A program made the translations under genes and the position numbers. Of a DNA stretch of 27,818 bases, positions 3,759 to 23,314 are shown one piece after another. Position 1 is the first letter of the stretch; each line of letters opens with the position of its first letter. The notes under the pieces are model-generated. The model had not been told where the DNA came from. It made no database searches and worked only from the letters and a program-made list of their open reading frames with translations. Source of the stretch: Robiginitomaculum sp. (GTDB lineage: Bacteria; Pseudomonadota; Alphaproteobacteria; Caulobacterales; Maricaulaceae); NCBI GenBank assembly GCA_016765255.1, contig JAESQI010000200.1, forward strand, positions 1-27,818. Reading direction: 5' to 3'.

Positions 3759-5104
3759 AGCGCGTTTTCGATAACGCCTACTAAGCCATCTGTCACACTT
3801 TGCACGGCGGCAAAATCATCGCCTTCTGCCATAACGCGAATCAGAGGTTCGGTGCCTGACGCTCGTACTAAGATACGCCCGCTCCTGCCCATTTGCGCAT
3901 GTGCGTCTTTGATGGCAGATTGTACGCTTTTAATCTCAAGCGGGTTTTGGCCTGAATATCGTACATTTTTGAGAAGCTGCGGTACTGCCGTGAATAAATC
4001 TAGCACTTCACTGGCGGGTTTATCTTTGCGGATAATTTCGGCCAAAACCTGTAGGGCAGCAATTGTACCGTCCCCTGTCGGAGAAAAATCTGTCATCAAT
4101 ATATGCCCTGATTGCTCTCCGCCGACATTATATCCATCTTGTCGCATACGGGCAGCCACATAACGGTCGCCAACATCTGTGCGGATCAGTTCCAGTTTTT
4201 CATCCCCCAATCGCCGTTCAAGACCAAGGTTTGACATCACGGTCGCCACAATGCCGTTTCTTGACAGGCGGTTTGTTTGCTTCCAACCGATAGCCATGAG
4301 GGCCAATAATTGATCCCCGTCAACGATTTTACCTTTCTCGTCGCACATGATCAGACGGTCAGCGTCCCCGTCCAGAGCAATACCTATATCGGCTTTGTGT
4401 TCAAGCACGGCTTTTGACAAAGCATCCGTATGGGTTGAACCACATAATGCATTTATATTGGTACCGTCAGGATCCGTGCCAATGGTGATCACTTCACTCG
4501 CCCCCAATTCCCAGAGGGTTGCGGGCGCGGTTTTATAGGCAGCGCCATTGGCGCAATCAAGGACAATCCTAAGACCGTTGAGTGTAATGCGGCGCGGAAA
4601 TGTGGCTTTGACAATTTCGATATAGCGAGCTTGCGCATTATCATAGCGCTTTGCACGACCCAGATTGGCGCCCGTGGCCAGCCCCTCTTCCAAGCCTTGC
4701 TGCATCAATTTTTCGATTTCTGCTTCGGCACTATCTGAGAGCTTTTTCCCGTCAGGGCCGAAAAATTTAATGCCGTTATCATGAAATTTGTTATGGGACG
4801 CGGTGATCATAACGCCCAAATCTGCGCGTAAGGAACGGGTCATCATGGATACACCTGGCGTTGGCAATGGGCCGAATAGGCGTACATCCATCCCCACAGC
4901 CGTAAAACCAGCCACCAATGCAGGTTCAATCATATAGCCCGATAAGCGGGTATCTTTGCCAATCACCACGCTATGGCGGCGACCATTTTCGCGCATGAAA
5001 TATTTTCCAGCCGCCATCCCTAGTTTGAGGACGTTTTGCGGTTCCATGACGCCGCTATTGGCAAGGCCGCGTACACCATCAGTGCCGAAAAATTTCTTGC
5101 CCAT
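3755..5104 (-). CDS. glmM: Phosphoglucosamine mutase
   Basis: [59 protein letters not shown] upstream. Confidence 0.97.
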
Positions 5105-15795: not shown

Positions 15796-17049
15796 CTAAA
15801 TAAAATCTTCCATATCTGGAATGCGCCCAAAGGCGATTTTACCGCCTGCATAGCCGCCGCTTGGTTCTATATGTGTGCCAAGGCTTAAACATGTACGGCC
15901 ATAATGGGTGTTAAGCGCGTCCATAAGTACACTCATGTTTTCCCAGTTTTTTCGGCGAGACCGCTCATCTGCAGTTTCGAGCAAATCTTCACACCGCTGA
16001 TTTTGTGTTACCAACCCAAACAAGCATATAGAGACTTTAAACGGAGATTGGTTTGGAGATTGTTGCTTCAATGCCAACACCATATTTTCCAAGCTTTTTA
16101 AGAATGTATGGTCATCAAAGGCAGGCACCTGAAAATGTGTTGTCCGTCGCCATCTTGTCTGGTGTTTAAAACCGACGTGCAGAGAAAGATAAGACGCGGC
16201 AAAGTTTTCCCGACGTAAACGCCGTGCCGCCTTGACCAATAACAAACGTGCGCAATTGCGAGCGCCTTGAATATTTCTCCAGTCTGGCGACAAGACGCGC
16301 CCATGCCCAAACATATTGCGGGTGGTTTTTAAGGCCTCTGTCCGAAATCCGTGCAGCCCCGCCCAAAGTCTTTCCCCCTCGACACTGCGCCAAATCGCGC
16401 GCATTTGCTTGCCGCTTAACCCCATCAATTGCCGCACGGAAACAATGCCAGACATCCGCAACCTTTCTTGCATCCTCCTGCCGATTCCAGGAATGTCTGA
16501 CAGTTTAATTCCGTACAACATGTGTGGTAAATCTGTTGGCTGTAAACAGACGAGACCGTTTGGTTTTTCCATTTCAGCCGCAATTTTTGCTAAAAGCTGA
16601 TTGGGGCCAAATCCAATAGAGGGGGTAATATAGGGGCCTATATCCGCCGCCAAATTATCGCGTATTTCCACGGCAATTGAAAGCCAGTTTTGCCGCTCAC
16701 GCCCCTTCAATTGGCACTCCACCTCGTCAATTGACCACACATTGTGAATGGGTAAGCTTTTGCCGACTGACTTTAAAATTCGGTGGTGCATTTTAATATA
16801 CACATCATGGCGGGCAACAGGCGCAGGAAAATCAGGATATATTTCGCGCACATCAATCAGGCGAACACCGCGCTGGATACCCAATGCCTTTGCCTCACGG
16901 CTGACAGCGATAAACCCTGAATAAGGACTATCAAGTGGCAACACGCCCATGGGACGGTTCCGGTAGGCGGGCACGAGCTGTTGCTCGACAGAGGCAAAAA
17001 AGCTGTCAAAATCTATATATAGTGTTTCTATACTGGTTGGTTTACGCAT
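15796..17049 (-). CDS. Y-family (DinB/UmuC-like) translesion DNA polymerase
   Basis: From ATG 17049: LYIDFDSFFASVEQ (catalytic Asp), WSIDE (catalytic Asp-Glu), LLAKIAAEMEKPNG, HhH motif DIPGIGRRM. The upstream ORF extension is unlikely to be translated. Confidence 0.92.
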   Translation of the reverse strand: MRKPTSIETLYIDFDSFFASVEQQLVPAYRNRPMGVLPLDSPYSGFIAVSREAKALGIQRGVRLIDVREIYPDFPAPVARHDVYIKMHHRILKSVGKSLPIHNVWSIDEVECQLKGRERQNWLSIAVEIRDNLAADIGPYITPSIGFGPNQLLAKIAAEMEKPNGLVCLQPTDLPHMLYGIKLSDIPGIGRRMQERLRMSGIVSVRQLMGLSGKQMRAIWRSVEGERLWAGLHGFRTEALKTTRNMFGHGRVLSPDWRNIQGARNCARLLLVKAARRLRRENFAASYLSLHVGFKHQTRWRRTTHFQVPAFDDHTFLKSLENMVLALKQQSPNQSPFKVSICLFGLVTQNQRCEDLLETADERSRRKNWENMSVLMDALNTHYGRTCLSLGTHIEPSGGYAGGKIAFGRIPDMEDFI

Positions 17050-17060
17050 CAACCTCAATA

Positions 17061-17075
17061 GAACATATAGGGAAC
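17061..17075. promoter_or_regulatory. Alphaproteobacterial LexA (SOS) box
   Basis: GAAC-ATATAGG-GAAC (GTTC-N7-GTTC on the minus strand), an exact match to the alphaproteobacterial LexA direct repeat, 11 nt upstream of the polymerase ATG. Confidence 0.88.
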
Positions 17076-17147
17076 ATTTACAAGCGTGTCTCGCACGAGT
17101 TTGCAATTTTTGTTGTATTGTGTAGCGATTTGGGCAATGGCTATACC

Positions 17148-21639: not shown

Positions 21640-22470
21640 TTAGGCTTTGAGCCGCCAACCTGATTTTAGCACTGAGAGACACACGACAAATAAAACAACA
21701 TTAAGAATGGATGTATAGAGCACACCGATCATTATATTCCCGTCCGCAGTCCCAAGAAAACCGTAGCGAAACCCGTCTATGAAATAAAACAACGGATTGG
21801 CAAATGATATTTTTTGCATGAAGACGGGCAATTGATCAATATGGTAAAATGTACCCGAGAGAAAACTTAACGGCAGGATGACAAATTGATTGACGACAGC
21901 CAGCTGGTCAAATTTCTCGGCCCACACCCCTGACAATAAACCAACCATTGATAAGGCCAAAGCGGCGGACAGGCCAAAATATATCACGGCCCACCACTGG
22001 GCGGGCCAAAGCACGGCAAATAGCGACAACGCGAATGTCGTAGCAATAGCAACGAGCACGCCCCGCGTGACTGCGCCGGCAATATAGCCGATTGCCAATC
22101 CGAGGGCTGAAAGCGGCGGCATCAACACATCCACAATACTGCCCATCACCTTGCCCGTCATAATGGACGAGGATGAATTGGCTGATGCATTATTTAAAAT
22201 GCCTAGCATGATCAATCCCGGAATCAAAAACCGGATGAATTCTTGTGGGCCTTCGGCGCGGTTTTGCGCAAAGGCCACCACAAATACGGTCATATACAGC
22301 AAATTTGAAACCACAGGGGCGAGGAGGGTTTGCGGCCCGACCTTCATAAATCGGCGCACTTCTTTTTTATAAAGCGTCCACAGCCCGAGCCAGTTTACAA
22401 GGCCAAATTGCCGTGTTGTTGGCCCTGCTACAGAGGGAAGCTTTTGAATGTTTTTTATGTTCACCGTCAC
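21640..22470 (-). CDS. ABC-2 type transporter permease (YadH-like)
   Basis: LYKKEVRRF, FLIPGLIMLG, VLMPPLS, PLSFLSGTFY, NPLFYFIDGFRYGF. About six TM segments. GTG start with GGAG RBS. Confidence 0.9.
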   Translation of the reverse strand: MTVNIKNIQKLPSVAGPTTRQFGLVNWLGLWTLYKKEVRRFMKVGPQTLLAPVVSNLLYMTVFVVAFAQNRAEGPQEFIRFLIPGLIMLGILNNASANSSSSIMTGKVMGSIVDVLMPPLSALGLAIGYIAGAVTRGVLVAIATTFALSLFAVLWPAQWWAVIYFGLSAALALSMVGLLSGVWAEKFDQLAVVNQFVILPLSFLSGTFYHIDQLPVFMQKISFANPLFYFIDGFRYGFLGTADGNIMIGVLYTSILNVVLFVVCLSVLKSGWRLKA

Positions 22471-22613
22471 TCTTGGCTCCGTAAATAAACGCCAAACTGC
22501 GCCTGATCCACTCTTATCGCTCTATCATGGCATTTCACCCCCGCCAAGCCGAAAAAAGTGGATTTTTAAAAATATCGGAGCCGCCTCATTTGTCATCATT
22601 ACATCATAATACA

Positions 22614-22742
22614 ACACAACATATAGAAATCTGTGGATAGTTAGAACAGCTATCTTGTATATAACTGTAAAACAGATACGATATGTTGTAATAAAGTGCG
22701 ATGTTATCAGCAATAACAAGCTCTAACCACTATATATGGTAT
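22614..22742. promoter_or_regulatory. Array of NrdR-box-like palindromes upstream of gcrA
   Basis: 10-nt cores: CAACATATAG (22617), AGCTATCTTG (22648, weak), CGATATGTTG (22679), CAATAACAAG (22711, weak), CTATATATGG (22730), compared with the NrdR core CwAtATaTwG. Confidence 0.5.
22632..22640 (-). promoter_or_regulatory. DnaA box-like 9-mer in the gcrA upstream region
   Basis: Plus strand TGTGGATAG equals CTATCCACA on the minus strand, 8 of 9 to TTATCCACA. DnaA is a known activator of gcrA in Caulobacter. Confidence 0.5.
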
Positions 22743-22807
22743 GTGGCACTCTAGTCACATGATAATGTGCGATATGCATACGGCGAATTTGCAAGGGGGA
22801 TTAACCA

Positions 22808-23314
22808 ATGGCGACGTGGACAGAAGACCGGGTAGAAACGCTTTCAAAGCTTTGGGCTGACGGCCTGAGCGCAAGTCAAATTGCCAAAATATTAGGCGAA
22901 GTGACGCGCAATGCTGTTATCGGCAAAGTTCACCGCCTTGGCCTATCTGGTCGGGTTAAAAAATCTAAGCAAGCCAAGCGTATGCCCCGAACAACAACTG
23001 CGAAAGCCCGTACCACCAGTCCAAGTGCGCCGCGTATGCCGAGACGCATGGCCGCAACACCTGCCCCCGTTCCCCTAGAAGCCAAAAAACTTCCCAACGG
23101 GGAATTTGCCAATATTATGACCATTACAGATCATATGTGCAAATGGCCACTTGGGGATCCATCCAGTTCAGATTTCCGTTTTTGCGGACGCGGAGCGGAC
23201 AAGGGCGACCCTTATTGCAAAGCCCATTCGCAAGTCGCCTACCAACCCGCCCGTCGACGCGGTGTGCCAAGCCCTGCTCTACTTGCGCAAAATAAACGAC
23301 GCGCTCTGCGTTAG
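22808..23314 (+). CDS. gcrA: GcrA cell cycle regulator
   Basis: WTEDRVETLSKLWADGLSASQIA..LG.VTRNAVIGKVHRLGL and C-terminal CKWPLGDP..FRFCG..PYCKAH..AYQ. Divergent from the ABC permease-argD-argF block. Confidence 0.97.
   Translation: MATWTEDRVETLSKLWADGLSASQIAKILGEVTRNAVIGKVHRLGLSGRVKKSKQAKRMPRTTTAKARTTSPSAPRMPRRMAATPAPVPLEAKKLPNGEFANIMTITDHMCKWPLGDPSSSDFRFCGRGADKGDPYCKAHSQVAYQPARRRGVPSPALLAQNKRRALR

Follow-up and report, generated by a model that had tools for sequence, protein, structure and literature searches.

A predicted, helically phased NrdR box array and nested DnaA box upstream of gcrA in Caulobacterales

Why would the DNA upstream of gcrA carry boxes that resemble nrd operators when no nrd gene lies beside it? 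The Caulobacter-type cell cycle has a core oscillator made up of GcrA, DnaA, CtrA and CcrM, and to our knowledge the dNTP pool has not been described as an input to this oscillator. NrdR represses the genes of ribonucleotide reductase (RNR) in response to the balance of dATP and ATP. In Streptomyces, Listeria, Streptococcus and E. coli, NrdR with ATP and dATP is the DNA-binding state of the protein. NrdR tetramers with ATP and dATP bind to pairs of boxes, and ATP alone leads to non-binding oligomers (PMC9110341, PMC12051234). The locus studied here belongs to a 2.38-Mb MAG that is 79% complete and, among named genomes, is nearest to Robiginitomaculum, Litorimonas, Algimonas and other Caulobacterales; the window that we analyzed is the whole of one of its contigs (C193; 27,818 nucleotides). 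A first-pass annotation of the window, made without database searches, had suggested that gcrA may be coupled to the dNTP pool through NrdR and had remarked that no nrd gene is adjacent. The second claim holds for the entire window, the nrd genes being on other contigs (nrdJ on C26; nrdA and nrdB on C290; a further set on C347). The first is supported by the analysis described here, in the absence of binding or expression data.

Predicted NrdR boxes in the gcrA upstream region

The Pfam GcrA match spans residues 3-150 of the 168-residue protein, which meets the criterion for GcrA of a match along its full length. The gene is separated from a divergent ABC-2 permease gene by a gap of 337 bp (22471-22807) with a G+C content of 39%, and the features of the locus are collected in Table 1. 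A GGGG(A) core of the gcrA ribosome-binding site is kept ahead of the ATG in the genus alignment. No Rfam family was matched in a scan of the whole window, and the CcrM/GcrA methylation site GANTC does not occur in 22471-22807.

Table 1. Features of the gcrA locus, with NrdR matrix scores and footprint conservation where available
Feature	Position	Strand	Score or match	Conservation
ABC-2 permease gene, divergent from gcrA	21640..22470	-	Pfam ABC2_membrane	
Predicted NrdR box B1, ACACAACATATAGAAA	22614..22629	.	13.3 bits; 6/6 key positions	0.88 (upstream flank 0.54)
Predicted DnaA box, TGTGGATAG	22632..22640	- (CTATCCACA)	8/9 to TTATCCACA	0.98
Degenerate predicted NrdR box B2	22645..22660	.	-7.7 bits; 4/6 key positions	right half 0.96, left half 0.57
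Probable -35, TTGTAT	22655-22660		in right half of B2; inferred, rests on conservation	
Weak predicted NrdR box B3, ATACGATATGTTGTAA	22676..22691	.	5.5 bits; 6/6 key positions	0.85
Probable -10, TACGAT	22677-22682		left part of B3, 16 nt after TTGTAT; inferred, rests on conservation	
Strong predicted NrdR box B4, CCACTATATATGGTAT	22727..22742	.	17.1 bits; 6/6 key positions	0.84
Linkers and flanks				0.46-0.57
Ribosome-binding site of gcrA, AAGGGGGA	22793..22800	+	read from sequence	
gcrA coding sequence	22808..23314	+	168 aa; Pfam GcrA PF07750, E = 7.8e-49	

For scoring, we used a matrix made solely from the nrdJ, nrdA and nrdB upstream regions of this genome and 30 relatives (31 genomes). Of the relatives, 17 are congeners, and the remaining 13 represent five further families of the order. 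The matrix is palindromic and 16 bp long, was seeded with the published NrdR consensus and then refined, and had all gcrA sequences excluded from it. It comprises 115 sites with the consensus ACACTATATATAGTGT and 13.4 bits, and its information peaks at C4, A6, A8, T9, T11 and G13. Upstream of nrdA and nrdB, the tandem boxes of this set are 31 bp apart. The same six key positions and tandem boxes are reported in the binding literature, in which the criterion for an NrdR operator is a partially palindromic 16-bp box with these six bases (PMC13584703).

Scored with this nrd-derived matrix, the gcrA boxes are on par with true nrd boxes and far above shuffled sequence, an outcome that the first-pass annotation had set as a test. 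Across the 2.38 Mb of the genome only two sites reach ≥17 bits, namely the nrdA operator (17.8 bits) and gcrA B4, and the three top intergenic sites are those of nrdA, gcrA and nrdB, the last with a best score of 15.8 bits. Among 20,000 dinucleotide-preserving shuffles of the 337-bp region, the score of B4 was reached once (p ~5e-5), and two sites of ≥13 bits likewise occurred in 1/20,000. The per-position information of the gcrA boxes correlates with that of the nrd matrix at 0.97, a value that is partly circular because the boxes were chosen by the matrix and that we give no weight.

Several other sites in the genome are recorded here as observations in their own right. The remaining high-scoring sites (on contigs C366, C387, C156 and others) fall within open reading frames, look like chance matches and were rejected. 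On C177, an NrdR-like box of 14.0 bits (4688-4703) is located 24 nt upstream of a gene for a 229-aa radical SAM protein with Radical_SAM and Fer4_12 domains, which could be an nrdG-like activase or QueE. Within the window, positions 17062-17076 carry GAACATATAGGGAAC, which matches the alphaproteobacterial LexA-type box GAAC-N7-GAAC exactly and lies a short way upstream of a gene for a Y-family DNA polymerase (15796-17049, minus strand; Pfam domains IMS, IMS_HHH and IMS_C). An NrdR-like site of 15.4 bits at 17010-17025, within the early coding sequence of this polymerase, is probably a chance match. GANTC is depleted 4.4-fold over the whole window, with 18 occurrences against ~80 expected from dinucleotide-preserving shuffles.

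The first-pass annotation had listed five cores, three good ones at 22617, 22679 and 22730 and weaker ones at 22648 and 22711, with successive spacings of 31, 31 and 32 nt for 22617, 22648, 22679 and 22711. The three good cores (CAACATATAG, CGATATGTTG and CTATATATGG, respectively) hold in both sequence and coordinates and correspond to B1, B3 and B4, each with all six key positions. The core at 22648 holds in part: it corresponds to B2, which is degenerate in this genome, where only its right half, ATCTTGTAT, is kept, and which scores better in relatives (7-10 bits for the orthologous box). The core at 22711 fails and was rejected, as the corresponding box (22708-22723) scores -6.6 bits, has 4/6 key positions and is not conserved. 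The array is corrected to four boxes, B1 to B4, whose starts are spaced by 31, 31 and 51 bp; the 31-bp register is upheld, and the last step is 51 bp. The score of B3 is pulled down by a G at position 5, a base never found in nrd sites, and the B4 orthologs of relatives score 14.5-18.7 bits. A further inverted repeat, TCACATGATAATGTGC (CACAT-N4-ATGTG, 22755-22770), lies 12 nt past B4, with a score of 5.9 bits; its offset of +28 puts it out of phase, and relatives do not keep it.

A referee might object to the linkers of this array. NrdR requires two boxes, with linkers of 15-16 or 25-27 bp and a dependence on helix phase, the 25-27 bp linkers being a functional long-spacer class (PMC13584703, PMC12051234). 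Here, the B1-B2 and B2-B3 linkers are 15 bp each, with B2 degenerate, and the B3-B4 linker is 35 bp, a helical turn longer than the 26 bp of most other families. Neither box pair is canonical in this genome, given the -7.7 bits of B2 and the 35-bp B3-B4 linker. We found no test of a 35-bp linker in the parts of PMC13584703 and PMC12051234 that we consulted; one of these studies assayed 12-27 bp. A second objection is that the array lies upstream of gcrA and not of an RNR operon, such that the RNR-operon criterion for an NrdR operator is not met. We regard this position as the point of novelty and not as disproof of NrdR binding.

The absence of nrdR from the genome would also have spoken against NrdR sites, and nrdR (TIGR00244) was indeed not found in this MAG, which is 79% complete. 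It is, however, present in 16 of the 17 congeners and in all 13 of the other relatives, and thus its absence here is probably an assembly gap. Across the class, nrdR was found in 133/151 genomes, a tally that includes one unpublished genome that contributed no locus and supports no claim here, and only two GcrA-bearing genomes of the class lack it.

Conservation and helical phasing of the array

The array upstream of gcrA is kept in 30/30 relatives, one of which (locus L017) gave no scan hit and has Ns within otherwise recognizable boxes. The footprint values in Table 1 are majority-base fractions over an alignment of 19 genus and family sequences. Between genomes, box letters change only at positions where the nrd matrix is degenerate. 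The conservation in orthologous promoters that the first-pass annotation had predicted is thus borne out, with all 30 relatives, and nearly all of the Caulobacterales sampled, retaining boxes and phasing while flanks and linkers diverge.

The pattern extends to 80 named gcrA loci from public genomes. In these, 69 sites of ≥12 bits are found in 20.3 kb of gcrA upstream DNA and 4 in 203 kb of flanks, an enrichment of about 170-fold, and shuffles contain a mean of 0.5 such sites. B1 and B4, ~104 bp apart, are present in nearly all Caulobacterales, including Caulobacter, Phenylobacterium, Brevundimonas, Asticcacaulis, Hyphomonas, Henriciella, Hirschia, Ponticaulis and Litorimonas; Maricaulis and Oceanicaulis have one strong box only at that cut-off. 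No box was found upstream of gcrA in most Hyphomicrobiales among the 80 named loci. When one genome per family was sampled across the class, a box of ≥12 bits was seen to precede gcrA in 12 of 28 other alphaproteobacterial families, against ~0.2 sites expected. Because related genomes are not independent, fewer independent events underlie these figures than the counts suggest; the difference between boxes and flanks is unaffected.

Distances between sites cluster at 31/32, 42, 51/52, 62/63, 72/73, 82/83, 103-105 and 113-115 bp; each corresponds to a whole number of ~10.4-bp turns, with a resultant length of 0.79 and a mean phase close to zero. B1 and B4 are separated by 103-105 bp in most families, by 113-114 bp in this genus and by 83-85 bp in Litorimonas and Algimonas. 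These distances differ by whole turns, indicating that insertions and deletions came in whole helical turns. The B3-to-B4 start distance is 51 bp here, 51-52 bp in array variants and 42 bp in other families, and such one-turn and two-turn linker variants constitute a natural experiment on how NrdR depends on helix phase. When 53 loci were read from B1, the position at +31 bp (B2) had a median of 6.9 bits and that at +62 bp (B3) a median of 5.9 bits. B2 reached ≥5 bits, and B2 and B3 were found at these positions, in 64% of loci; at control offsets from B1, ≥5 bits was never reached. No partner box for B4 was found at +/-31 bp in the same 53 loci. Boxes of the CnACGAnAT type, to which B3 belongs, are widespread upstream of gcrA across the class.

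The DnaA box and the probable promoter

The first-pass annotation had also placed a DnaA-box-like 9-mer at 22632-22640 between its first two cores, and this claim holds; the 9-mer matches at 8/9, is invariant in the genus and sits within the 15-bp B1-B2 linker. The sequence match alone is not above chance, since the window contains 11 one-mismatch matches against 6.7 expected. Support for the DnaA box rests on its conservation: CTGTGGATA is invariant in the genus alignment, and a TGTGGA core is found within the B1-B2 linker in 45 of 52 loci. NrdR linker sequence is normally not conserved (PMC13584703), and conservation of the B1-B2 linker thus indicates a second protein. The gcrA gene of C. 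crescentus is activated by DnaA from a promoter with one DnaA box (PMC3193534). The 9-mer meets the criteria for a DnaA box, which are a near-consensus sequence and an orthologous position that is conserved in a DnaA-regulated promoter.

A related arrangement was observed upstream of nrdJ (C26:530-570), where the DnaA-box-like TGTGGATAT adjoins a weak NrdR-like box, ACACAAGGTGGGGTAT, of 7.7 bits that is 138 nt ahead of the nrdJ start. A better nrdJ box, of 10.6 bits, lies 29 nt ahead of the start. It may be that nrdJ shares the logic of DnaA plus NrdR.

We inferred TTGTAT in B2 and TACGAT in B3 to be the probable -35 and -10 elements of gcrA. Both are invariant in the alignment. A simple sigma-70 scan returned no plus-strand promoter at 9/12, with TTGTAT-N16-TACGAT matching at 8/12. 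The 11 sequencing runs that contain the stretch or part of it are all DNA metagenomes, and the transcription start could not be mapped. In the nrdA promoter of the same genome, box 1 holds a TTGACG -35 in its right arm and box 2 holds the -10; the gcrA hexamers, inferred without RNA data, would repeat this geometry relative to their boxes. With the same reservation, B4 is likely to be in the transcribed leader of gcrA.

Explanations for the array and its place among known systems

The boxes match the nrd operators of the clade, stand out as extreme outliers genome-wide, and have been conserved together with their helical phase and the nested DnaA box. The explanation that we consider likely to be the best is that the 337 bp ahead of gcrA form a composite promoter with the design of an RNR promoter, at which NrdR would repress against DnaA; occupancy by NrdR and repression are both inferred. 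According to this explanation, four NrdR boxes would lie on one face of the helix, with the strong B1 and B4 outermost and the weak B2 and B3 overlapping the probable -35 and -10, and with the DnaA box in the B1-B2 linker. At a high ratio of dATP to ATP, the array would be occupied by NrdR tetramers with ATP and dATP, with binding beginning at B1 and B4 and spreading cooperatively across B2 and B3. The spread NrdR would occlude both the promoter and the DnaA box, and gcrA would be repressed. When dATP falls, for example as replication uses the pool, NrdR would leave, opening gcrA to activation by DnaA-ATP. The synthesis of GcrA would then have two requirements, DnaA that is competent for initiation and a dNTP pool that has been drawn down. 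That NrdR would occupy the array at high dATP is an analogy, made because characterized NrdR proteins behave in this way. NrdR occupancy, repression as opposed to activation, competition with DnaA and the promoter hexamers are all inferences, for which there are no binding, ChIP, transcription-start or expression data.

Among the systems closest to this design are the nrd promoters of the same genome. The nrdA (C290:5339/5370) and nrdB (C290:8953/8984) promoters have the same 16-bp box and the same 31-bp register as gcrA, their scores of 17.8+12.3 and 15.8+8.9 bits, respectively, are comparable to those at gcrA, and in all three the upstream box contains the -35 in its right arm and the downstream box contains the -10, as inferred for gcrA. 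They differ in having two adjacent boxes only, no conserved linker DnaA box and no distal strong box. In E. coli nrdAB, NrdR boxes likewise overlap promoter elements (PMC12176259). The E. coli nrdAB promoter also carries DnaA boxes, such that DnaA and NrdR are joined on one promoter. That promoter serves an RNR target with a box pair, whereas gcrA encodes a cell-cycle transcription factor and has four boxes, and its DnaA box is nested in an NrdR linker, unlike those of E. coli nrdAB. Listeria monocytogenes nrdAB, with two NrdR box pairs 113 bp apart, is a precedent for a multi-box array, and the long-spacer NrdR sites of Streptococcus pneumoniae (25-26 bp) show linkers lengthened by whole turns (PMC13584703, PMC12051234). 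The 26-bp B3-B4 linker of most Caulobacterales fits this long-spacer class. The Listeria and Streptococcus arrays belong to RNR operons, unlike that of gcrA.

Pseudomonas aeruginosa topA is the only validated non-RNR target of NrdR, and it is activated, not repressed; as with gcrA, it is a replication-related non-nrd gene, and mutation of its NrdR box alters its expression (PMC4409342). It is also listed in the reconstruction of proteobacterial NrdR regulons (PMC5343134 supplement). It differs from gcrA in that it has a single box and its link to NrdR is limited to one family, while gcrA has four boxes in a whole order and beyond. Because topA, the only tested non-RNR target, is activated, the sign of the regulation of gcrA is uncertain.

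As described, the gcrA promoter of C. crescentus carries a single DnaA box, which lies upstream of the -35 (PMC3193534), and is subject to CtrA repression. The Caulobacter sp. locus L146 has the same layout as the array described here, with a CtrA-like TTAA-N7-TTTA in addition between the probable -35 and -10; relative to its start codon, B1 begins at -170 and B4 at -67. This CtrA-box-like element lies ~100-130 nt upstream of gcrA and is found in Caulobacteraceae loci; the genus alignment shows no CtrA box between the probable -35 and -10 in this genus. In the literature that we searched, we found no description of NrdR boxes at C. crescentus gcrA and no paper tying NrdR to gcrA; the two papers there that name both NrdR and GcrA do not connect them. 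The NrdR regulons of 20 proteobacterial groups contain nrd genes, yfaE, trxA, topA and a few hypotheticals, with gcrA absent (PMC5343134 supplement), and this is the largest NrdR regulon reconstruction.

Against the composite promoter, it is possible that B2 and B3 are kept purely as -35 and -10 elements, and B3-like elements do stand alone in many Hyphomicrobiales. A rival that accepts real NrdR sites holds that NrdR activates or fine-tunes gcrA, or that the sites mainly titrate NrdR. The activation of P. aeruginosa topA by NrdR (PMC4409342) speaks for it, as does the position of B1 upstream of the probable -35, where activators bind. However, B2 and B3 lie on the probable -35 and -10 and B4 lies downstream, which is a repression geometry like that of the nrdA promoter of the same genome, and topA has a single box with no phased array. 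We therefore consider this rival unlikely.

Similarly unlikely is the proposal that these are ordinary promoter or leader parts (-35, -10 or UP-like elements), or NrdR-like sites of an unknown factor, without any NrdR binding. In its favor, B2 and B3 fit TTGTAT-N16-TACGAT, the B3-like CTACGATAT is found without B1 or B4 in Hyphomicrobiales and Rhizomicrobium, and the G at position 5 of B3 is foreign to nrd boxes. Against it, B1 and B4 are outside the hexamers, are 16-bp palindromes with all six key positions and scores like those of the best nrd operators, and vary only at positions that are degenerate in nrd boxes. NtrX was considered as the binder and rejected, as neither B1 nor B4 fits its CAA-N2-5-TTG motif, which has been reported upstream of gcrA in S. 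meliloti.

It is very unlikely that the array controls the divergent ABC-2 transporter gene and not gcrA. The neighbor is conserved, being next to gcrA in most Caulobacterales, in 24/29 relatives, in 45/80 named loci and in 16/29 class-wide loci from families other than that of this genome, and the divergent pairing is ancient. However, boxes of ≥12 bits are found upstream of gcrA in 7 of the 13 class-wide loci without this neighbor, and we thus assign the array to gcrA. In addition, B4 abuts the gcrA ribosome-binding site in many genomes, there is no conservation between B1 and the ABC-2 start, and a promoter-like site on the minus strand, at 22596-22569, falls outside the array. The ABC-2 permease gene is a conserved neighbor that is probably not the target. 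Finally, chance matches in AT-rich intergenic DNA, a view to which the low G+C content of the region and the AT-rich motif core lend some support, are all but excluded by the shuffles, the enrichment over flanks and the conservation of the boxes across families.

With the composite promoter retained as the preferred reading, a 2025 study bears on its consequences. Raised dNTPs delay the G1-S transition in C. crescentus by a CtrA-independent and undefined mechanism, and deletion of nrdR (CC_1358) produces the same hyper-spreading phenotype as raised dNTPs, the two being synergistic (PMC12186491). Given that nrdR deletion both mimics and synergizes with raised dNTPs, NrdR is not required for the dNTP effect, and NrdR acting on gcrA thus cannot be the sole mediator of the delay. 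A bolder reading makes NrdR an ancient direct input from the dNTP pool to the alphaproteobacterial cell-cycle circuit, competing with DnaA at gcrA; we find this attractive but, on balance, would not yet favor it.

What the data suggest, without binding data, is that the supply of DNA precursors is linked directly to the alphaproteobacterial cell cycle, in a way that appears not to have been described. If the preferred reading is true, gcrA would be the second non-RNR member of the NrdR regulon after P. aeruginosa topA, and a master regulator. It would offer a concrete and testable route from the dATP/ATP ratio to cell-cycle transcription, the array being present in Caulobacter itself. On the bolder reading, accumulation of the S-phase master regulator would depend on dATP/ATP, such that the cell-cycle program would be checked against precursor supply or actual replication, and the checks on this program would go beyond DnaA and CtrA.
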